Assembly (NCBI GenBank): GCA_030668875.1
Contig: DAOVER010000008.1
Span: 30,001 to 62,000 of the forward strand
Direction of reading: 5' to 3'
Source of the DNA: Candidatus Heimdallarchaeota archaeon
GTDB taxonomy: Archaea; Asgardarchaeota; Heimdallarchaeia; Heimdallarchaeales; Heimdallarchaeaceae
Length of the DNA stretch: 32,000 nt
Both the position numbers and the translations under genes were made by a program. Under the pieces are notes generated by a model that did not search any database, had not been told where the DNA came from, and saw only the letters and a program-made list of their open reading frames with translations. Positions 6,948 to 18,584 of the stretch are shown here, piece by piece; position 1 is the stretch's first letter, and each line of letters starts with the position of its first letter.

Positions 6948-8132
6948 TAAGTCTTCCAATCTATTCATCGCATCCTCTATTTGATTTAATGTTGGAAGAT
7001 ACACCATTCTGAAACCATTTTCACCATAAGGACCAAATCCCGAGCCAAAAACCGATAGAACGTGTTTCTTACGAAGTAGGTCAAAAACAAATTCCTTATC
7101 GTTCTTCCAGGTAAACTGTTCCATATCTAGAACTGGGAAAATGTAGAATGCTGCTTCTGGTTTGAAGACAGTTATTCCTTCCATCTCTGTTAATCTTGTA
7201 AACATCAAATCTCTTCTTTCGCGTAGTATTCGGATTGTTTCAGGAAGATAAGAACTTAAATCCTGTTTCAGTGCTTCAGCTCCAGCTTTTTGTAAAGGTG
7301 TAGATGCACACAACCTAATTCTTGTGAGTTTATTCAAACCTTCCCACGGTCCCTCTACTTTATTTTCAGGATCGTGTAAGTAGGCATATCCAAGCCTCCA
7401 ACCTGGAGCTAAAAACACCTTGCTAAAGCCGTTGTATGCGATTACTGGAACATCTTTTGCAATTTTTGCAGTTGCTATGTGTTTCAGTCCTTCATCTAAT
7501 ATTAATCCATCATAGGTTTCATCTGAAACGATACATGCATCGTATTCACCAACAACTTCAATGATTTCCTTTAACACTTTTTCTGGATAAACAGATCCAG
7601 TTGGATTATTTGGACTGTTAAGGAAAACAAGTTTAGTTTTTTCGTTCATTAAAGATCTAATATGATCAGCATCTGGATAAAAATTTTCTTGAACTACTGT
7701 TTTATAATATTGAATTTTTGTATCAAAAATCGTTGCATTTCCTGAATAACTAGGGTAGTGAATGCCTGGTATAACTACATTGTCTCCTGGATTTGTGAAA
7801 GCCATAAATGTCATTTGAATACCTTCAGACACACCAGCTGTTGCAACAACTTTGTCTGACGTGACACTTACTCCATGTTTACCGTTTTCATACGAAGCTA
7901 CTGCTTCTCTATATTCTAGAAGCCCTTGAGAGTTTGCATAGAAATTATAATTTTCCATTTCTGCGTATTTCAAAGGTTCTGTGAGTAGTTTAGGGGTTTT
8001 AAAACCATATTTAATTGGATCTCCAATATTTAGTTTAATGATTTCATGTCCTTGTGCTTCAACTTCCGTTGCAACGGCTAGAACATCTCGGATAGCATAG
8101 CTAAAATTTTCAGTTCTTTCAGATATCTTCAT
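6927..8132 (-). CDS. PLP-dependent class I/II aminotransferase (AlaA / alanine aminotransferase-like)
   Basis: IIKLNIGDP, NSPNNPTG, SDETYD, FSKVFLAPGWRLGY (PLP Lys), PEAAFYIFP. Confidence 0.9.
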   Translation of the reverse strand: MKISERTENFSYAIRDVLAVATEVEAQGHEIIKLNIGDPIKYGFKTPKLLTEPLKYAEMENYNFYANSQGLLEYREAVASYENGKHGVSVTSDKVVATAGVSEGIQMTFMAFTNPGDNVVIPGIHYPSYSGNATIFDTKIQYYKTVVQENFYPDADHIRSLMNEKTKLVFLNSPNNPTGSVYPEKVLKEIIEVVGEYDACIVSDETYDGLILDEGLKHIATAKIAKDVPVIAYNGFSKVFLAPGWRLGYAYLHDPENKVEGPWEGLNKLTRIRLCASTPLQKAGAEALKQDLSSYLPETIRILRERRDLMFTRLTEMEGITVFKPEAAFYIFPVLDMEQFTWKNDKEFVFDLLRKKHVLSVFGSGFGPYGENGFRMVYLPTLNQIEDAMNRLEDLLNVSRI

Positions 8133-8295: not shown

Positions 8296-9696
8296 ATGCC
8301 TGCTATAGCAAATTGTAGTTTTTGCAGTAGTCCTGCACAATATTATTGTAAATCATGTAAGAGGAAACTTTGTTCAGATCACATAATAATCTCAAATACT
8401 GTTTATCATTGTGATAACTGTGATGAAGACTGTTATGAACAAAATTGTCCCACTTGTGGAAAAGAAACATCAACAACTAGACATGAACCTGTTCACCGTT
8501 GTGATTGGTGTAAATCTGCTTCAGTTGAGGATGGTTTATTATATTATCAACAGTTACCACAGTTAATTTTCTCGGTTGTGAATCTTCTCCATAAGAAGCT
8601 TTCCAAAGTATGGAAACTTACTAACCATTACGTTGAAGTTGTTAACACTGTTTATGAAATTAGAAAAGCAAAAATTATGCTTTTCGCAGGCGTTGAAGAT
8701 GAAATTACACTCTTGAGAGGCAAAATCGCAACTTTCATAGACCATCTCGTAAAATTTGAAAATGAAACTTTTACTATGGTGGATGAGAAACTCCGCAATA
8801 TTGGTTATATGCGGTACACAAACTTGAACAACATTGAGAAAGCAGAAGAAGTATTAGTTTTGATGGAAAACCGTTTAAAGCTTTTGGATAATACCTTAGA
8901 AAATAAATTTGAGGGAATTGAAACGGATTTTGATATTCTCGAACAGAAAGTAAACTACTTGAAATTCCAATTTGGATTTCTCAAAAAAATTCATCAATTA
9001 CTTCCAGATAATGAGAAGGAAGAACTCATCGCTGTAATTCCTCGTGTCTGGTTAAAGAAAAATAGAAAAATTGCTAGAAAGTATCTTCTTATTTTCACAA
9101 ATCAAAATCTCTATCTGATGCGAGAAAAGGGCTTGTTTGATGTAAAATTGAGAACTAAAGAAGCTATTAGTTTGTCTTATATTATAGATAAAAAGTACAT
9201 CTCAAAATTACTATCTGGAAAAAACTTCAGATTCAAAACTCGATTGGATTCTTATGTTCTATATGGTAGAAAAACAACACTAGAACAGATTTTAACGTAT
9301 TTTCAATTAGTAGACAATTATATTGATTTCTCCATTCATAAATCCTCAATAATAGAAGATCTCAAGGATTATTCACTAACAATAAGTGAGCTCAAAAGCA
9401 ATATACAACGCAATCACAATCATCTACGAACTTACTTGTTGAACAAACGTGAACTGAAAAAAGAATTATATTGGAGAGAAGGACAAGATGCAAAGTTCAA
9501 TAAGTTATTTGAGCAACTACTTGCAGTCGAACGTAAGATTCATCGATTAAACCAATCTCGAAGGTATGGAGGAAGGAGTACAAGAGGAATAGATGGACTG
9601 TTGGGTAAACTTACTGTTGAACACAATCGTTTGAAACAACAAATGGAAAGTGTTCGCAGAAAAAGCGATGAATTCGATGATATGTGGGAGATTTGA
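8296..9696 (+). CDS. Multi-zinc-finger (B-box-like) + coiled-coil + PH-like domain protein
   Basis: N-terminal CxxC-x7-CxxC-x4-CxxH followed by three more CxxC pairs; long heptad-rich helical region; beta-rich segment EELIAVIP...LLIFTNQNLYLM resembling bacterial/archaeal PH-like domains; C-terminal coiled coil. Confidence 0.6.
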   Translation: MPAIANCSFCSSPAQYYCKSCKRKLCSDHIIISNTVYHCDNCDEDCYEQNCPTCGKETSTTRHEPVHRCDWCKSASVEDGLLYYQQLPQLIFSVVNLLHKKLSKVWKLTNHYVEVVNTVYEIRKAKIMLFAGVEDEITLLRGKIATFIDHLVKFENETFTMVDEKLRNIGYMRYTNLNNIEKAEEVLVLMENRLKLLDNTLENKFEGIETDFDILEQKVNYLKFQFGFLKKIHQLLPDNEKEELIAVIPRVWLKKNRKIARKYLLIFTNQNLYLMREKGLFDVKLRTKEAISLSYIIDKKYISKLLSGKNFRFKTRLDSYVLYGRKTTLEQILTYFQLVDNYIDFSIHKSSIIEDLKDYSLTISELKSNIQRNHNHLRTYLLNKRELKKELYWREGQDAKFNKLFEQLLAVERKIHRLNQSRRYGGRSTRGIDGLLGKLTVEHNRLKQQMESVRRKSDEFDDMWEI

Positions 9697-10905: not shown

Positions 10906-11520
10906 ATGTTTGGAAATTTTATGGGATGGCTATTAGGTTCGAAGAAAAACCCTCGCGACCATATAGTAAATCTAAGATTAACTGTTCGTCGATTAGAAAG
11001 AGCTCAGAGAAAGCTTGAACGTGACGAATCTAAAATGCAATTAAAAATGAAACAAAGTATTCAACGAGGAGATTTAGAGTCTGCACGATTATTTGCAACA
11101 GATATTGTTCGAAACCAACGTTGGGAGTTTGGTTATCAAAAATTAGTATCTAGAATAAATGGATTAATTTTCAAACTTGAACGTGCGGATACTGCTGCCA
11201 GCATGGCTGCAGAGATGCATGGAGTAGCTTCCGCTCTTCGAGCTGCTAATGAGCAGCTACAAATACCTGATTTAGACCGAGTAATTCAGGATATGGAAGG
11301 ATCCATTGACGGGATTGAGGAATCTACAGGTACTATTGAAGATGGTATAGATGATTTATTGATTGCAGATACAGATCCAGCTGAAGTAGATCGTTTAATA
11401 GAAAAAACTGCTGTTGAATTAGGTGTCTCAACACAAGCAGGATTACCTTCTGTGGGTGTTGTAGAGACAGATGATTTAGAAGAAGAAATCCAAAAGCTAA
11501 GGAAAAAAGAAGAGGATTAA
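10906..11520 (+). CDS. ESCRT-III subunit, Vps2/Vps24/Vps46(Did2) class
   Basis: Snf7-family helical pattern LRLTVRRLERAQRKLERDESKMQLKMKQSIQRGDLESARLFATDIVR; N-terminal amphipathic MFGNFMGWLLG; C-terminal MIM1-like DDLEEEIQKLRK. Confidence 0.92.
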   Translation: MFGNFMGWLLGSKKNPRDHIVNLRLTVRRLERAQRKLERDESKMQLKMKQSIQRGDLESARLFATDIVRNQRWEFGYQKLVSRINGLIFKLERADTAASMAAEMHGVASALRAANEQLQIPDLDRVIQDMEGSIDGIEESTGTIEDGIDDLLIADTDPAEVDRLIEKTAVELGVSTQAGLPSVGVVETDDLEEEIQKLRKKEED

Positions 11521-11534
11521 ATAGGTGATAAATA

Positions 11535-12188
11535 ATGGTTAAAAATTGGCTCTTTGGCAAAAAACGAAAGGAAGACGCTGATGCTCTTTCAACACTCAAA
11601 GCACAAATGAATAGAATGGAACATGAGGCAAGAAATCTTGAAAGACAAGCAGATGAGCAGAAAATACTAGCTGCCAAAATGCTTCAAACTGGCAACAAAG
11701 CTGGAGCAAGATCAGCACTTAAGAGAAGAGCAGTCTTCATGAAAAGACTCAATTCTGTTCATAATACTGTTATGAACCTTCAAGCTCAGCTAGATAGTAT
11801 CCAAACAGCTGCATCAACCGCTGACACTGTTAGGGCAATGGAAGTAGGTACAAAGGTAGTTGGAGAGAAAATCAAGGAAGTTTCTCCAGAAAGAACAGAA
11901 CGTGTTATGGATACAGTTATGGAACAACGTGATCAAATTGAAATGATGACAGAAGCCTTATCTGATCCAAGTTTATCTGAAGGAATTCTAGATTTTGAAG
12001 ACGATGCAGCAATTGATGATCAACTAGCACAGCTTGAAGCTGAAATGGACCTTGGAACAACAACAAGCTTGCCTGATCTCTCTGGATTACCTGCAACACC
12101 AACTGGTGTCTCAGGTGAAAAGGAAGAAGATACATCAGATCTTGAAGAAGAACTTGAATCGTTGAAGAAAAAAATGAGTGAAGATTAA
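11535..12188 (+). CDS. ESCRT-III subunit, Vps20/Vps32(Snf7)/Vps60 class
   Basis: WLFGKK N-terminus, GNKAGARSALKRR...LNSVHNTVMNLQAQLDSIQ, acidic tail with LPDL..LPATP and DLEEELESLKK motifs. Confidence 0.92.
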   Translation: MVKNWLFGKKRKEDADALSTLKAQMNRMEHEARNLERQADEQKILAAKMLQTGNKAGARSALKRRAVFMKRLNSVHNTVMNLQAQLDSIQTAASTADTVRAMEVGTKVVGEKIKEVSPERTERVMDTVMEQRDQIEMMTEALSDPSLSEGILDFEDDAAIDDQLAQLEAEMDLGTTTSLPDLSGLPATPTGVSGEKEEDTSDLEEELESLKKKMSED

Positions 12189-12304: not shown

Positions 12305-13459
12305 GTGACTTACGTGTCGGCACAAGGCTTAATAGATCATGCTAGAGAATTTGCTTTAAAGGCTTATAATTTTGATAAAGAAAAAAACTATAGTGAAGCT
12401 ATTCCTTATTACTTAGATGCCGCAGAAGCTTTAATGAAAGCCATTAGATTCGAGCGTAATCCTCAAATTGCTCGGACATTGAAGAAGAAAGCGGAAATGT
12501 ATTTAGCTCGTTCAAAGGAATTGCGAGAACTACTTTCTAAACGGAAGGAGAAGAAGTCAGCAGCTGGAGACGACAGCGACAATGATAAATTATCGGGAGC
12601 AATTTCTGATATTATCGTTACAGAGAAACCCTCAGTCGCCTTAAAAGACATTGCTGGATTAGAAACTGCTAAACAGACATTAAGAGAAGCAATTGTTTTG
12701 CCGTTAATGCGTCCAGATCTTTTTTCAGGTGCAAGAAGACCTTGGAAAGGAATTTTGTTATTTGGTCCTCCCGGTTGTGGAAAAACTCTAATAGCAAAGG
12801 CAACAGCAGCTGAAGTTGAAGCTACTTTTTTCAATGTTAGTGCTTCTTCAATCATTTCGAAGTGGTTAGGAGAATCAGAGAAACTTGTTAAGACCTTGTT
12901 CCAACTCGCTCGTGAAAAACAACCAAGTATTATCTTCATTGATGAAGTTGATGCTTTAGCAGGAGCAAGAGGAGGAGAGCACGATGCAATGCGTCGAGTT
13001 AAAACTGAATTGTTGACTTCAATGGATGGTTTATCTAGTTCAGAAAAAGATCGCATTGTCACTGTAGGTGCAACAAACTTGCCAGAAGCTATAGATGGTG
13101 CTTTTAGGCGGAGATTTGAGCGTCGTATTTACATTCCTCTACCAGACATTGAAGCTAGAGAAGCAATCTACAAATACAACACCAAAGGTATAGAAGTTGG
13201 TCCTGATGTTGACTACTCTATTTTAGCAGAAATAACTGATTGTTACTCTGGTGCCGATATTGCAATGGTATGCAGAGAAGCAATAATGACACCTATTAGA
13301 GAGCTGGATATGGCTGGAGCAATTACTGATACAAATATTCAAGCGCGTCAAGTTACACAAGATGACTTTTTAGAAGCAATAGAAGCCATCAATCCATCAG
13401 TTAGTGATGATGAAGTAGATAGATACGATAAATGGAATGAAGAATTTGGCAGTGCTTAA
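12305..13459 (+). CDS. vps4: Vps4 AAA+ ATPase with N-terminal MIT domain
   Basis: MIT (AREFALKAYNFDKEKNYSEAIPYYLDAAEALM), Walker A GPPGCGKT, pore loop SKWLGESEK, Walker B IIFIDE, FRRRFERRIYIPLP, C-terminal helix YDKWNEEFGS. Confidence 0.97.
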   Translation: MTYVSAQGLIDHAREFALKAYNFDKEKNYSEAIPYYLDAAEALMKAIRFERNPQIARTLKKKAEMYLARSKELRELLSKRKEKKSAAGDDSDNDKLSGAISDIIVTEKPSVALKDIAGLETAKQTLREAIVLPLMRPDLFSGARRPWKGILLFGPPGCGKTLIAKATAAEVEATFFNVSASSIISKWLGESEKLVKTLFQLAREKQPSIIFIDEVDALAGARGGEHDAMRRVKTELLTSMDGLSSSEKDRIVTVGATNLPEAIDGAFRRRFERRIYIPLPDIEAREAIYKYNTKGIEVGPDVDYSILAEITDCYSGADIAMVCREAIMTPIRELDMAGAITDTNIQARQVTQDDFLEAIEAINPSVSDDEVDRYDKWNEEFGSA

Positions 13460-13476: not shown

Positions 13477-14232
13477 ATGTCTACCCTTGAAAAGAGAAAA
13501 GATGAAGAAGAACATGCTGAAAAATTAGATATAAAGAAGCTCAAGGAAGAAAAAGAAATTTCCGATGAGAAACTAAAGCTAATTGAAGCAAGTATCAAGG
13601 GATTGGAAATAACTGAGGAAGACCTAAAAGCTACTATGCCTGTTGTGAAAACTGTTACACAAGTAGATCTTTCAAAAGAACAAAGAGCGTTTTTAGAAGT
13701 TGAGTTTGAGGATAGTTTACCGAAATGGGTAAAAGCTCCCTGGATGTATATTAAACCAAAGAAAGAATCACAAGTTGAATCTTGGCTTGAAAGCTGGTCA
13801 GCAATAGTTCTTGATTACAGTCGCATTTTTGTGATTCACATTATTAATGTTAATGAGATTCGAAATGTTCATCCATTTAATAATACTAAAAACAATAAAA
13901 GAATGTCTTTGGAACAAACTCGAGAGATTGTTGATCATCTCGTTAAACAGAGTGTAGCTAAATGGTTAGATGAAAAGACAAAAACACGAGCTCGTATTTA
14001 CTGGAAAACAAACGAGGAGTGGGCAGATAATCTGTTAGATTTCATGATTGAAACAGGTAGAGTCGTGGAGATTCACTCACTTTTTGATCTTTCGCAACTT
14101 CAACAAAAATGGAGCGATTTACCCGCTGATGATTTAATAATTGTTTGTGAAATGTTGGTTGAAAAAAAAGTGGCAAAATGGTTAAATAAAGAAAAAACAA
14201 TTATTCAATTTGAATCTGATAAAGTTTTTTAA
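13477..14232 (+). CDS. vps25: ESCRT-II subunit Vps25 (EAP20) with charged N-terminal extension
   Basis: PWMYIKP...QVESWLESWSAIVLDY...HPFNN..NKRMS matches the eukaryotic FPPFFTLQP...W.SLVL...LFNN..L.RKL pattern; second winged helix WSDLPADDLIIVCEMLVEKKVAKW. Confidence 0.88.
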   Translation: MSTLEKRKDEEEHAEKLDIKKLKEEKEISDEKLKLIEASIKGLEITEEDLKATMPVVKTVTQVDLSKEQRAFLEVEFEDSLPKWVKAPWMYIKPKKESQVESWLESWSAIVLDYSRIFVIHIINVNEIRNVHPFNNTKNNKRMSLEQTREIVDHLVKQSVAKWLDEKTKTRARIYWKTNEEWADNLLDFMIETGRVVEIHSLFDLSQLQQKWSDLPADDLIIVCEMLVEKKVAKWLNKEKTIIQFESDKVF

Positions 14233-14238
14233 AAAAAA

Positions 14239-14964
14239 TTACATCCCTAGTAAACCAGGAAACCAATATTTGGTGCCCTCAGAATAGCTTCTATCTACTC
14301 TTGCAATACCATGTTCATCAAAGAATGTTAAACATCTATCAATTCTTTCTTCTGACCAGTCAGTTTTCATCAAAAGCTCTTCTTTTGTCACATACCCTGA
14401 TCTTGACGCATAACTCAATATGATGTCGTGGTCTGGGCTGAATTCAACTGGTGTAAACTCTATGATTTTGACACCAGACTCAAGATTTTTGTAGGGTCTT
14501 ATAAGTTTAGAATTGATAAGTTTCTCAATCGATCTATACATATCATCTATTGAAACCATTCTTCCAGGTCTGATTTTATTCAATTGAGTAAATAATTCTC
14601 CAACTGACATGATACCTCCGTTATCAGGAGTCGAACTCTGACCTTGTTCCAATATTTCATTTGCCAAAATATCGTAGAATCCTTTGCCAGTTAATTTATC
14701 TTTGAGTGTAGGTGCTTCTTTCCAATCAAAACGACCAATTTCTGCAGGTAATCCTAATTCGTCTCGTAAACCTGCTAGTTTGTCATAATATTCTTTATTC
14801 TCCGAGATTTTATCACCGTATTTTTTCTCGAATTTTTTCAGCTGTTTCTTAATAACCTGAATATTATCCATCATTTGCTGTAATTCTTGAATCATTAATT
14901 CAGCATCTTTTACTTGGAAAGCAGATTTTATCTTGATTTTTTTCTCTATGTCTCTTAAACCCAC
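14239..14964 (-). CDS. ESCRT-II subunit Vps22/Vps36 (EAP30 family)
   Basis: Start placed at GTG 14964 (GGAG SD upstream), giving MGLRDIEKK. Contains GFYDILANEILE, NGGIMSVGELFTQLNK, GYVTKEELLMKTDWSEERIDRCL, and ends KYWFPGL (EAP30 tandem winged helices). Confidence 0.9.
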   Translation of the reverse strand: MGLRDIEKKIKIKSAFQVKDAELMIQELQQMMDNIQVIKKQLKKFEKKYGDKISENKEYYDKLAGLRDELGLPAEIGRFDWKEAPTLKDKLTGKGFYDILANEILEQGQSSTPDNGGIMSVGELFTQLNKIRPGRMVSIDDMYRSIEKLINSKLIRPYKNLESGVKIIEFTPVEFSPDHDIILSYASRSGYVTKEELLMKTDWSEERIDRCLTFFDEHGIARVDRSYSEGTKYWFPGLLGM

Positions 14965-15049
14965 TTCAATCTCCAAATAGTAATTGTATAGCACTTATTT
15001 ATATCTTCGCAAATCTGAAGACTATCAAAATATAAAATAGTCAGAAAAA

Positions 15050-15355
15050 CTAGAAAATACTTGGTAAAACTTGTATCCAATTCTTTATTTTCCCTGTTAT
15101 CTGATTTACTTCTCGTGGTGAAAGGAATGCTGCAAGCCTATTTTTGTATTTTCTATAGAGAGATTTGTATACCTCTTCCATCTCGTCTCCCAATCTTTCT
15201 CCCTTTGAGTTGATTTTTCTAATTTCCAAAGTGATTTCTTCTATTTCTTCAAGAATATAACCAACATCTATCTTAATCTCTATAAGATTGATTAATTCAA
15301 ACAATAACTGTCTCATGTTGATAAATTGTGCGTCATCAGCGTTTTTCTCTAGCAC
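15050..15355 (-). CDS. Small helical protein, probable stand-alone Vps28 C-terminal-domain-like four-helix bundle
   Basis: SD AGGTGA then GTG at 15355. Hand alignment to the Vps28 CTD of the adjacent gene: ELINL/ELIDL, ILEEIEEI/LLADMDEM, RKYK/GKYK, KNWI/ARWL. Confidence 0.55.
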   Translation of the reverse strand: MLEKNADDAQFINMRQLLFELINLIEIKIDVGYILEEIEEITLEIRKINSKGERLGDEMEEVYKSLYRKYKNRLAAFLSPREVNQITGKIKNWIQVLPSIF

Positions 15356-15431
15356 GAAAATCACCTGGTTATATCTCGATAAACCTCATTGAAAAATAAT
15401 TATAAGAAGAGAGGATATCTCCTTCTTTTCA

Positions 15432-16835
15432 TTATAATTCTTTGAGGACTCGTCGAAAATCATTCAGCCATCTTGCTGCTTGGAATTCGAGTTTTTCACA
15501 ATCTTCCTCCTTTATGACCTCTTCAGGTTTGTATTTACCAACAATTTCACGCCAATTATTGATATCTCCAATGACCCAATGGTCTTCAGGAATTGATGGG
15601 AATGTTTTGAGTATGTGTATCATCTCATCCATATCTGCTAGTAGTAAATCTGCCCTAGCTACTGAACGAAGTCTAGTTAAATCAATCAACTCAATTGCAG
15701 AAGAAACAAAATCCGCAGTTTTTGAGGGCATTTTCTTCAACGAGTCAAAGGGTATGGATACTGCGTCAGCAGTTTCAACTCCTTCAGCTACACGGAGATG
15801 TCGAATGCCTTTAGGATATTTGTTATCTAGTTTTTCTTTTTTGATAAAGTTTTCAAGTTGGAACCCAACTTTCTCTAGCTGCATTCGTGATTTGAAAATA
15901 CTTCTAATAAGAGAACGTAATTGCTTTCTATATGCAATTTGATCTATTTCATTATTTTCATAACTCTTAGCAAGATTATCAAGTGTTACAATTGAAGCAT
16001 AAAGATTAGCTTCTAATTCGAGGTTTTTTTCATCTAGTTTTGACATGCTACCACTCGCTTTGACGTGATTATGATGTTTTTCAGCTTTATAACCATTTTT
16101 AGAGTACCGTTTATATAGCTTTAGGAAATCCACAGTTGTCATGTCACCATCTTCAAATTTCTCTTGGAGTACTTCTAGGGTTTCTTGAACTGCATAGCTC
16201 TCAGCTTTAAGATTTTCTTCTAATGAGATTGATATTTCTTTGTCTGATCTATCAACTTCGATACCACCTTCTTTTAGTAAAGAGGCTCTTTCTTTCTCAA
16301 TTTTTCTACTTATGTCGTCAATCTTTGTTTGATAGTCCATTACTGTATCTTCTATTTCCCGTTTTTCAGTCTCTATAGGAGCTTCTTTTTTAGTTGCTAC
16401 CATTTCAATTTGAGGAAGTTGTCTAACAGGGATGGTAGCTCTCTGTAGTCCAGAATATCTTTCTTTTTTCTTTGATCTCTTTGTTTTATATGGTTTAGCT
16501 GGAACCCGGGTAAAAAGCTGTTTTGTATCACTAATTACATCATGAACATGATAATTTCTATTCCATTCCGCTAGTATTTTCATAACCAATGTTCCATCAT
16601 CATCAGTATTTGGATGATTCACCTTTGGTGTAATATCAACAAAAGGTGCTATATCAGGGAACCCGTCTTGAATGAAAATATTTGCAAAGATAGGAATTTC
16701 AGTTCCTTCAATTGTTCCTACATAACCTTTCCAATGTTTAAGGTTACCTCTTACAGGTTCGAATCCTGTTGCATTTTCATATATTAATTGCGTTTCATTT
16801 GCAAGGATGTAATCATCAGTAGATATCTGTCTCAC
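15432..16835 (-). CDS. ESCRT-I fusion protein: UEV (E2-like, no catalytic Cys) + coiled coil + Vps23 steadiness box + full Vps28
   Basis: UBC fold with FPDIAP.V...HPNTDDDGTLVMKILAEW; steadiness box AESYAVQETLEVLQEKFEDGDMTTVDFLKLYKRYS; Vps28 N-part NLYASIVTLDNLAKSYENNEIDQIAYRKQLRSLI; CTD TADFVSSAIELIDL...RWLNDFRRVL. Confidence 0.88.
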   Translation of the reverse strand: MRQISTDDYILANETQLIYENATGFEPVRGNLKHWKGYVGTIEGTEIPIFANIFIQDGFPDIAPFVDITPKVNHPNTDDDGTLVMKILAEWNRNYHVHDVISDTKQLFTRVPAKPYKTKRSKKKERYSGLQRATIPVRQLPQIEMVATKKEAPIETEKREIEDTVMDYQTKIDDISRKIEKERASLLKEGGIEVDRSDKEISISLEENLKAESYAVQETLEVLQEKFEDGDMTTVDFLKLYKRYSKNGYKAEKHHNHVKASGSMSKLDEKNLELEANLYASIVTLDNLAKSYENNEIDQIAYRKQLRSLIRSIFKSRMQLEKVGFQLENFIKKEKLDNKYPKGIRHLRVAEGVETADAVSIPFDSLKKMPSKTADFVSSAIELIDLTRLRSVARADLLLADMDEMIHILKTFPSIPEDHWVIGDINNWREIVGKYKPEEVIKEEDCEKLEFQAARWLNDFRRVLKEL

Positions 16836-16922: not shown

Positions 16923-17927
16923 CTATCTTGTTATTTGAAGGATAATTTTTATCGGCTTTGCAAGATTGTTATCTAAAACGAATACGGTTTCTTTCCCCTT
17001 AGAGAGAGAATCTTTGATTAAACTAGTAGAATCTAATAATTTGCCTTTCATCATTAACTCTGGTTTTTTCAATCCATAAGTTAAAGCTAACCGAACTTCT
17101 AATTCTTTTACTGTTTCTTTTGAATGAGCTACAAACTCTATTTGCTCAAGTTTGTACAAATCTCCGCAAGTAGGACATTCTTCAGATCGAACCAATTCCA
17201 AAATGGTAGTTGCATTATTTAATCCATCATAAAAGAGATAATTACAAAGACTATTCCCAATATTCAGTATCAGTTTCAAAGCTTCTTGAGCCATGATACC
17301 TCCAACAATTGCTGATAATGTCGCTACAGCTGGAAGAGGAGGTTCTTCTTCGATTTCCTCTCTTTCCTTTTTCCTTTCCTCACCAAAAGGCGTACAGGCT
17401 TGAGCTAACTCTTCTTCAGGAACCAAAGGTTGGCATTCAAAACACGCTGTTTCGTAAGGAATAATAACTTGAGCATTCCCTAAAAAAGCAAACATGCCTC
17501 CTGTGACTAATGGTATTTTCATTCTAACGGCCATTGAATTGATCCATCTACGTCCAAGAAACGTATCTAAACAGGAGACAATTACATCTGCCTCTTCATA
17601 TACTGATATGGAAACTTTTTCCATCTTTTTATGATAGAATTCGATGTCTACTGTTGGATTTAATTCCTTCAATCTCTTAGCAGCAGTTTCTGATTTGGAA
17701 TTTCCTACATCACTATCACGAAATAATAGTTGTCTATTGAGATTGGATGTTTCTATCGTGTCAAAATCTATTATTACTAGTTTACCAATTCCTGAAGAAG
17801 CAAGAATGGTTCCTACATAACTACCAATAGCACCAACTCCAACAAGAAGCACTGTGCTATCTGAAAGAGTATCCTGGTTCCATCCCGGTATCAACTGCTG
17901 TCTAGAGTAGCGAACATCATCCGTCAT
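16923..17927 (-). CDS. Ubiquitin-activating enzyme E1 (ThiF/UBA family) with C-terminal ubiquitin-fold domain
   Basis: RYSRQ, VGVGAIG nucleotide loop, DFDTIETSNLNRQ, zinc pairs CFEC and CPTC, catalytic Cys in ACT. C-terminal ~75 aa have a beta-grasp pattern (TVKELEVRL...LMMKGKLL). Start likely ATG 17927 (MTDDVRY). Confidence 0.92.
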   Translation of the reverse strand: MTDDVRYSRQQLIPGWNQDTLSDSTVLLVGVGAIGSYVGTILASSGIGKLVIIDFDTIETSNLNRQLLFRDSDVGNSKSETAAKRLKELNPTVDIEFYHKKMEKVSISVYEEADVIVSCLDTFLGRRWINSMAVRMKIPLVTGGMFAFLGNAQVIIPYETACFECQPLVPEEELAQACTPFGEERKKEREEIEEEPPLPAVATLSAIVGGIMAQEALKLILNIGNSLCNYLFYDGLNNATTILELVRSEECPTCGDLYKLEQIEFVAHSKETVKELEVRLALTYGLKKPELMMKGKLLDSTSLIKDSLSKGKETVFVLDNNLAKPIKIILQITR

Positions 17928-18082
17928 TAAATCACAAGCCAACGATATGGTACTATTTGTTGCTGATATATGTTTCTTTTTGAACAGCTAAAAACAATAT
18001 TGAAAACTCTGAACAATAAAATTAGATAAAATACCAATAAATGCTATTAAAAATATAAAGAAGAAAAGGACTTAGATTTGAA

Positions 18083-18319
18083 TTAATAACCGCCTTTAGT
18101 TCTGGCAATCAGATAACATTTGTCTCCATCCATCATACCAGTTTGCTTCAAAATATCACTATCATCTAATTGTTTTCCATGAAAAACGATAATCACGGTA
18201 TTAGCTGGAATCTTTTTCTTTTTCGAAACTTCTCTCTTTAATTGTGCTACTGTTGATTGTGGATCCACATCCAGCTCCAATGACCCTCCACCTATTGCGG
18301 TAACGACACTAATTCTCAT
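18083..18319 (-). CDS. Ubiquitin (pro-form ending GG-Y)
   Basis: SD AGGTGA 8 nt before ATG 18319; 78 aa. TVAQLKREV, VFHGKQLDD (eukaryotic IFAGKQLED), C-terminus LIARTKGGY-stop (aaa ggc ggt tat taa). Confidence 0.93.
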   Translation of the reverse strand: MRISVVTAIGGGSLELDVDPQSTVAQLKREVSKKKKIPANTVIIVFHGKQLDDSDILKQTGMMDGDKCYLIARTKGGY

Positions 18320-18584
18320 TTCAGTTTTCACCTGTACTTTTCTAGTTTTATTATTGACTTATTCATTATTAAAGCTTGTCAAATGATTTCAAATTTTATT
18401 TTGCTTTACCTCCCCTCACTATCTCTGCAATTTATCAGAATTTTCAGTTGATAACACATGCTGATATTCTCTATGTATTATGACATCTTAACTATGAGAT
18501 TATGGTTTTCAAGATAGGTAGACCTGATTAGTAGCTAATTATTTCTACCTAAAACAATGTAAAATGCAAGTAAGGGGTGCTTAA

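Follow-up and report, generated by a model that had tools for sequence, protein, structure and literature searches.

A stand-alone protein resembling the Vps28 C-terminal domain in the ESCRT gene cluster of Heimdallarchaeaceae

[quoted passage not shown] Our subject is a small gene of this cluster, located between a fused ESCRT-I gene and the ESCRT-II gene vps22. Its product is very probably a four-helix bundle and nothing else, homologous to the C-terminal domain (CTD) of Vps28. Taken as a whole, the evidence is best explained, with a probability of roughly 0.75, by an old Asgard paralogue of the Vps28 CTD, for which a role in trans as a dedicated ESCRT subunit or adaptor is a tentative proposal. 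The existence and annotation of this family are already known (asCOG cog.004115; Makarova et al. 2024), and our additions to the published annotation are modest: homology established through intermediates, the delineation of one old family that stands apart from the fused CTDs, and a conserved gene order. The gene itself is described as follows:

15050..15364, minus strand: stand-alone Vps28-CTD-like gene (open reading frame; stop codon at 15050-15052)

The small gene and its conservation

Two GTG codons could start the gene, one at 15364 (yielding 104 amino acids) and one at 15355 (101 amino acids), the latter being the start used by most database gene calls and by the earlier reading mentioned next. 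An earlier sequence-only reading of this DNA had described a gene of ~101 amino acids between the ESCRT-I fusion and Vps22 on the same strand, and both the open reading frame and the Pfam assignments of the neighbours agree with that description. The gene is separated by 67 bp from the ESCRT-I fusion upstream and by 55 bp from Vps22 downstream. A search of 5.8 billion proteins recovered 27 homologues of 84-104 amino acids, with identities down to 45% and including HeimAB125_14060, while a six-frame search revealed one intact copy in each of the 29 genomes of Heimdallarchaeaceae. Ratios of nonsynonymous to synonymous substitution (dN/dS; Nei-Gojobori, computed between close relatives with unsaturated dS) ranged from 0.07 to 0.17. 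We conclude that the gene is genuine and evolves under purifying selection; a non-coding or spurious reading frame is ruled out by these ratios. The alignment of small proteins contains an almost invariant stretch, FELINxIEIKIDVGYILEE, that covers helix 1, the following loop and helix 2, together with a conserved Tyr and a conserved Trp.

The genome carrying the window has 3.2 Mb and is 92% complete, and the homologues of the small gene are labelled Candidatus Heimdallarchaeaceae. DNA of the window is also present in marine sediment metagenomes, possibly its source.

Predicted fold

When provided with the family alignment, AlphaFold2 predicted the small protein with high scores (predicted local distance difference test, pLDDT, 92.8; predicted TM-score, pTM, 0.82). 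The predicted structure is a compact up-down bundle of four helices (residues 2-29, 34-49, 53-73 and 83-103) and ~95 residues that can be superposed on solved Vps28 CTDs. Foldseek searches of the PDB with this fold returned nothing at E<=0.001; among the 50 matches listed, the highest TM-score was that of the Xenopus Vps28 CTD (2j9w_B; 0.70/0.73, root-mean-square deviation 2.7 Å, E 1.5). The table figures for the predicted fold against solved Vps28 CTDs were 12.2 (2j9w_A), 11.5 (2j9v) and 11.4 (2g3k_A). Prediction and structural comparison consequently favour a Vps28-CTD-like bundle, as the sequence-only reading had anticipated, though with no significant Foldseek match.

The bundle spans the entire protein of 101-104 amino acids, and a steadiness-box or core domain was not found in it (hhalign against the Vps28 N-terminal region, E 0.3-0.6). 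Because the bundle fills the protein and there is no steadiness-box signal, we regard the product as a CTD-only protein and not as a full Vps28.

Homology through intermediate sequences

Direct sequence tests did not reveal the relationship. BLASTP of the small protein against the neighbouring fusion did not align the two over the CTD; its best match (E 0.78) lay in another part of the fusion. For the window protein, which stays below the curated cut-off of PF03997, Pfam produced no VPS28 match at E<=1, and distant members of the family gave only noise, without VPS28; in six frames over the whole genome, the ESCRT-I fusion was the only match to PF03997. Sequence-profile searches of the PDB with the Heimdall-only and whole-family profiles returned weak coiled-coil and designed-protein matches and no Vps28, and the comparison of the Heimdall-only profile with Asgard Vps28 CTDs was not significant (hhalign E 0.03-0.04). 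A search of 1.84 billion representatives with the hidden Markov model (HMM) of the Heimdall profile gave 17 matches, with Vps28 not among them; these were members of the same family of ~100 amino acids, proteins of low complexity or with coiled coils, and a single protein of 405 amino acids without annotation (E 8.7e-4). In the latter, a metagenomic protein (P0064) in which Pfam finds nothing, the Heimdall free-CTD profile is matched over its full length by residues 258-353; this may be a chance match or a fused form.

The relationship became apparent with intermediates, which were taken from loci around the Vps28 genes of other Asgard lineages and searched with the small-protein HMM. This model matched an open reading frame of 94-98 amino acids (E 1e-11 to 1e-17) that lies directly after a stand-alone Vps28 and directly before Vps22. 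According to a scan of named genomes, these reading frames belong to Baldrarchaeum/Baldrarchaeota, Hermodarchaeota, Wukongarchaeum and a few metagenome-assembled genomes with other Asgard labels. A CTD-only HMM, for which 25 full-length Vps28 proteins supplied the sequences, gave the Baldr-type small proteins 29-35 bits from end to end and the Heimdall small proteins 3-15 bits, yet with a collinear alignment. In profile-profile comparison, a significant resemblance to bona fide Vps28 CTDs extended across the whole domain: the profile of the whole small-protein family, with the window protein as first sequence, aligned with the Asgard Vps28 CTD alignment over 84 columns (hhalign probability 92.2%, E 5.7e-7), whereas the controls (reversed CTD and Vps28 N-terminal region) remained at E 0.03-0.6. 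The Asgard CTD profile in turn matches the solved eukaryotic CTDs (1.9e-13 for 2j9w; 2e-6 for 2j9u, 2j9v and 2g3k). Since the Heimdall-only profile is not significant, the homology link rests on the Baldr and Hermod intermediates.

An independent cross-check came from a Loki DDRGK/E3-UFM1-ligase/PCI protein of 788 amino acids, the C-terminus of which is matched by the family profile (E 8.5e-5 per genome) and, at the same site (residues 689-778), by Pfam VPS28 above cut-off (25.2 bits). This protein (locus L086:2500-4863, minus strand, in genome G190 of family f14), matched by both the free-CTD profile and PF03997, fits an architecture of cog.003822 type for which Makarova et al. 2024 gave a description. 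Separately, the last ~90 residues of proteins of ~466-476 amino acids without a Pfam match (L088:330-1727, plus strand, in G119 of family f24; also in G134 and G140) match the free-CTD profile with E 1e-5 to 8e-4 per genome. Judged by this sequence match, these proteins may carry an unannotated Vps28-C-like domain fused to an N-terminal region without an assigned family.

These results bear on the possibility that the small protein is a generic four-helix bundle, unrelated to Vps28, with a similarity that arose by convergence through helical composition and with some other role in the locus. Such a bundle would account for the window protein and the Heimdall-only profile having no direct Pfam, BLAST or PDB-sequence match, and designed bundles and CheA P1 do equal the Vps28 CTD in structural score against the predicted fold. 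We nevertheless consider it quite improbable in view of the 84 collinear columns and their separation from the controls, the scores of the Baldr-type members against the CTD-only HMM, the reciprocal match to the Pfam-certified VPS28-C domain of Loki, and the fact that the small gene always adjoins vps28.

The hand alignment with the neighbouring CTD that the sequence-only reading had offered fared differently by method: it finds no echo in pairwise BLASTP, but hhalign reproduces it column for column (small protein/CTD pairs LFELINLIEIK/AIELIDLTRL, YILEEIEE/LLLADMDE and KNWIQVL/ARWLNDF). Likewise, a Vps28 signal is absent from direct Pfam and Heimdall-only searches and present with the whole-family profile. 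The proposed echo of eukaryotic LDDSQVRQM in the last helix holds by transitivity, LSPREVNQI corresponding to IKEEDCEKL of the Asgard CTD and this in turn to LDDSQVRQM of Xenopus Vps28 (2j9w). Overall, the idea of a stand-alone Vps28 CTD is backed by fold, by profile-profile homology via intermediates and by conserved synteny.

An old family with a conserved gene order

We analysed 23 small proteins together with 25 Vps28 CTDs in an unrooted maximum-likelihood tree. A 100/100 branch splits the two sets, and on the side of the small proteins those of Heimdall and its sister family sit together on a long derived branch. Because of this split, the small proteins constitute an old paralogue family and no recent copy of the adjacent CTD. 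The tree rules out a recent duplication of that domain; the sequence-only reading of a paralogue of the adjacent CTD consequently survives as an old separate family and, given the tree and the Baldr, Hermod and Wukong members, not as a recent copy.

Six-frame searches also detected a more divergent copy in a second family of the class (8 of 12 genomes; 5 of 5 with a broader profile). Genomes with a match to the broad profile were distributed among genome families as follows:

f1: 24 of 24
f2: 1 of 1
f7: 5 of 5
f9: 2 of 2
f13: 1 of 1
f17: 19 of 19
f19: 4 of 4

With this profile, the small-protein form was not found in the remaining genome families sampled. Where a lineage had no match, Vps22 directly follows Vps28 in the loci that we examined. 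The order Vps28, small gene, Vps22 is kept across several lineages, and within Heimdallarchaeaceae the small gene invariably sits between the ESCRT-I gene and Vps22. The family neighbours vps28, usually just upstream of vps22, in Heimdallarchaeaceae, in the sister family and in Baldr-, Hermod- and Wukong-labelled lineages; the small gene adjoins Vps22 in most loci examined, the exceptions being locus L089 of f2 and three loci of f7. In loci L054, L055 and L057 of the sister family f7, ~1.5 kb of extra DNA lies between the small gene and Vps22; in the remaining f7 loci the two genes adjoin. Synteny, another check on the original proposal, thus speaks for it, the small gene being kept in orthologous Asgard ESCRT clusters of several lineages.

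Since the split is unrooted, it is compatible with either direction of change, the free form being ancestral or derived. Makarova et al. 2024 postulated a step in which a stand-alone Vps28-C module was later fused to the steadiness box, creating Vps28. The free bundle could be a distinct core subunit and no degenerate spare copy, either as a descendant of that ancestral module or as a factor bridging ESCRT-I and ESCRT-II with a binding partner other than that of the fused CTD; we hold this joint alternative to be unlikely.

Proposed role in trans

The steadiness-box half anchors Vps28 in the ESCRT-I headpiece, and the eukaryotic Vps28 CTD docks on ESCRT-II (Vps36) and on Vps20. Because the small protein is without the steadiness-box half, the canonical way into ESCRT-I is closed to it. 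Reasoning by analogy, we tentatively propose a mechanism in which the small gene would be co-expressed with the ESCRT-I fusion and Vps22, and in which its product, like the eukaryotic CTD, would most likely bind in trans to an ESCRT component acting downstream. Vps22/Vps25 or a Vps20-type ESCRT-III protein are candidate partners, and the docked bundle might supplement or tune the hand-over from ESCRT-I to ESCRT-II/III. Note that a single complex prediction of the small protein with Vps22, both supplied as alignments, scored 0.12 and weighs neither way.

A role within ESCRT-I is much harder to sustain. Asgard genomes are without Vps37 and Mvb12 (Hatano et al. 2022) and the small gene lies directly after the ESCRT-I gene, circumstances that would suit a substitute for these missing subunits in the stalk or headpiece. 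However, Vps37 and Mvb12 provide long helices or a helical hairpin where the small protein is a compact four-helix bundle, the comparison with the Vps28 N-terminal profile gave no steadiness-box signal, and the Heimdall fusion dimerises by itself (Hatano et al. 2022). The substitution is extremely improbable, and an analogue of Vps37 or Mvb12 is ruled out by the fold together with the absent steadiness-box signal.

The evolutionary results also bear on whether the free bundle is a competitive regulator that occupies the ESCRT-II/III site of the fused CTD and so damps or times ESCRT-I-dependent recruitment. Homologous to the CTD and of the same fold, encoded between ESCRT-I and Vps22, and without a steadiness box with which to bring ESCRT-I along, the small protein has attributes of a competitor. 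Yet it belongs to a family with an old split from the CTDs of all full-length Vps28 proteins, in several lineages no genome is without it, as would be expected of a core subunit, and it conserves different residues (L38, E39 and Y73, which are invariant, and the near-invariant W96, as opposed to I11, D15, W58 and F90 in the fused CTDs), which misfits an identical binding surface. Simple competition therefore seems doubtful to us. We have a weak preference for a dedicated subunit or adaptor that has a binding specificity of its own, because the family is of old age and is kept throughout its lineages and because it keeps its own residues and motif, deeply diverged from the fused CTD. The earlier suggestion of a soluble adaptor or competitor for ESCRT-II recruitment is pure inference.

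Asgard ESCRT clusters offer the best view of the origin of the eukaryotic hand-over from ESCRT-I to ESCRT-II, and the free Vps28-CTD module, kept by all Heimdallarchaeaceae genomes searched, is a candidate for an additional link or regulator in this process. The main interest lies in its binding partner and in whether the free form came first or arose secondarily.

The surrounding ESCRT cluster

The genes of the cluster around the small gene are:

8296-9696, plus strand: protein of 466 amino acids with N-terminal Zn ribbons
10906-11520, plus strand: ESCRT-III (Snf7-family) gene 1 (Pfam Snf7 1.4e-18)
11535-12188, plus strand: ESCRT-III (Snf7-family) gene 2 (Pfam Snf7 3.1e-23)
12305..13459, plus strand: Vps4 AAA ATPase (open reading frame; AB_125-type orthologous locus gene with MIT, AAA and Vps4_C)
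13477..14232, plus strand, convergent with Vps22: Vps25 of ESCRT-II (Pfam ESCRT-II 1.5e-19)
14239..14994, minus strand: EAP30/Vps22 of ESCRT-II (Pfam EAP30 3e-21)
15432..16835, minus strand: single-chain ESCRT-I fusion of 467 amino acids, with UEV/E2-like domain, Vps23 core (steadiness box) and complete Vps28
15435-15725, minus strand: CTD of the ESCRT-I fusion (~residues 371-467)
16923-17942, minus strand, upstream of the ESCRT-I fusion: E1-like ThiF enzyme (Pfam ThiF 6.9e-63)
18083-18331, minus strand, upstream: ubiquitin (Pfam ubiquitin 1.2e-13)

In the fusion, Pfam recognises VPS28 (8.1e-12, residues 276-464), UQ_con (1.1e-8) and Vps23_core (3.8e-7). The Vps28 N-terminal (steadiness-box) profile has a second match within the fusion, immediately upstream of the first (residues ~211-262 in addition to 276-330), and further matches in the C-termini of separate Vps23-like proteins of other lineages (upstream genes of loci L021-L058). 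These matches agree with the homology already known between the steadiness boxes of Vps23 and Vps28.

The protein encoded at 8296-9696 has only weak B-box matches in Pfam. Its position and the size of its AB_125 counterpart fit cog.006820, 'Triple Zn ribbon fused to pleckstrin homology domain' (Znr_PH_CC_SB), which Makarova et al. 2024 put forward as a component of ESCRT-I specific to Asgard archaea. By analogy, it is a candidate partner for either CTD, because the Vps28 CTD binds the Zn finger of Vps36 in yeast.

Comparison with known systems

According to Makarova et al. 2024 (main text), some Asgard genomes encode the CTD separately on top of a full vps28, and these separate CTDs were suggested to interact with ESCRT-II as in eukaryotes. 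Their Table S2 (mBio 15:e00335-24), based on the asCOGs of Liu et al. 2021, assigns to cog.004115, "Vps28 protein, C-terminal region", a gene of Heimdall AB_125 at 7115..7351 that is flanked by Vps22 and the E2-Vps23 fusion, and flags it as an ESCRT component. The gene is thus no orphan, as the sequence-only reading had called it; its published interpretation coincides with the one offered by that reading. The cog.004115 member As_001-p_01332 (HeimAB125_14060 / OLS31937.1) shares 54% identity with the window protein (E 6.2e-22) and is its orthologue in the same genomic context. The order of the AB_125 locus is identical (Ub, E1, UEV-Vps23-Vps28, small gene, Vps22, Vps25, Vps4, Snf7 x2), and contigs with the identical AB_125 protein have the same gene order and gene sizes. 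The published AB_125 gene call is shorter (78-84 amino acids, with a later Met start); otherwise there is no difference of substance. The adjacent fusion (HeimAB125_14070 / OLS31938.1) was studied by Hatano et al. 2022, while the literature searched contained no mention of HeimAB125_14060 / OLS31937 by name and no experiment on the small protein.

The eukaryotic Vps28 CTDs of known structure (2J9U, 2J9V and 2G3K of yeast; 2J9W of Xenopus) share only 3-8% identity with the small protein, which in contrast to eukaryotic Vps28 is free-standing, has no N-terminal steadiness-box/core domain and falls below the Pfam threshold. In addition, the partner element of the CTD in yeast, the NZF finger of Vps36, has no counterpart in Asgard Vps22. 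That the small bundle is encoded on top of a complete Vps28 and has no free counterpart in eukaryotes is supported. The CTD of the neighbouring fusion, from the same genome and of the same fold class, shares ELI(N/D)L, KYK and the helix-4 Trp with the small protein, but the two fall on opposite sides of the 100/100 branch and are not connected by pairwise BLASTP. Finally, in the Loki E3-UFM1-ligase/PCI/adaptin proteins with Vps28-C (cog.003822), this domain is the C-terminal module of proteins of ~790 amino acids encoded elsewhere in the genome, whereas the small protein of the window is a single-domain protein encoded inside the core ESCRT operon.
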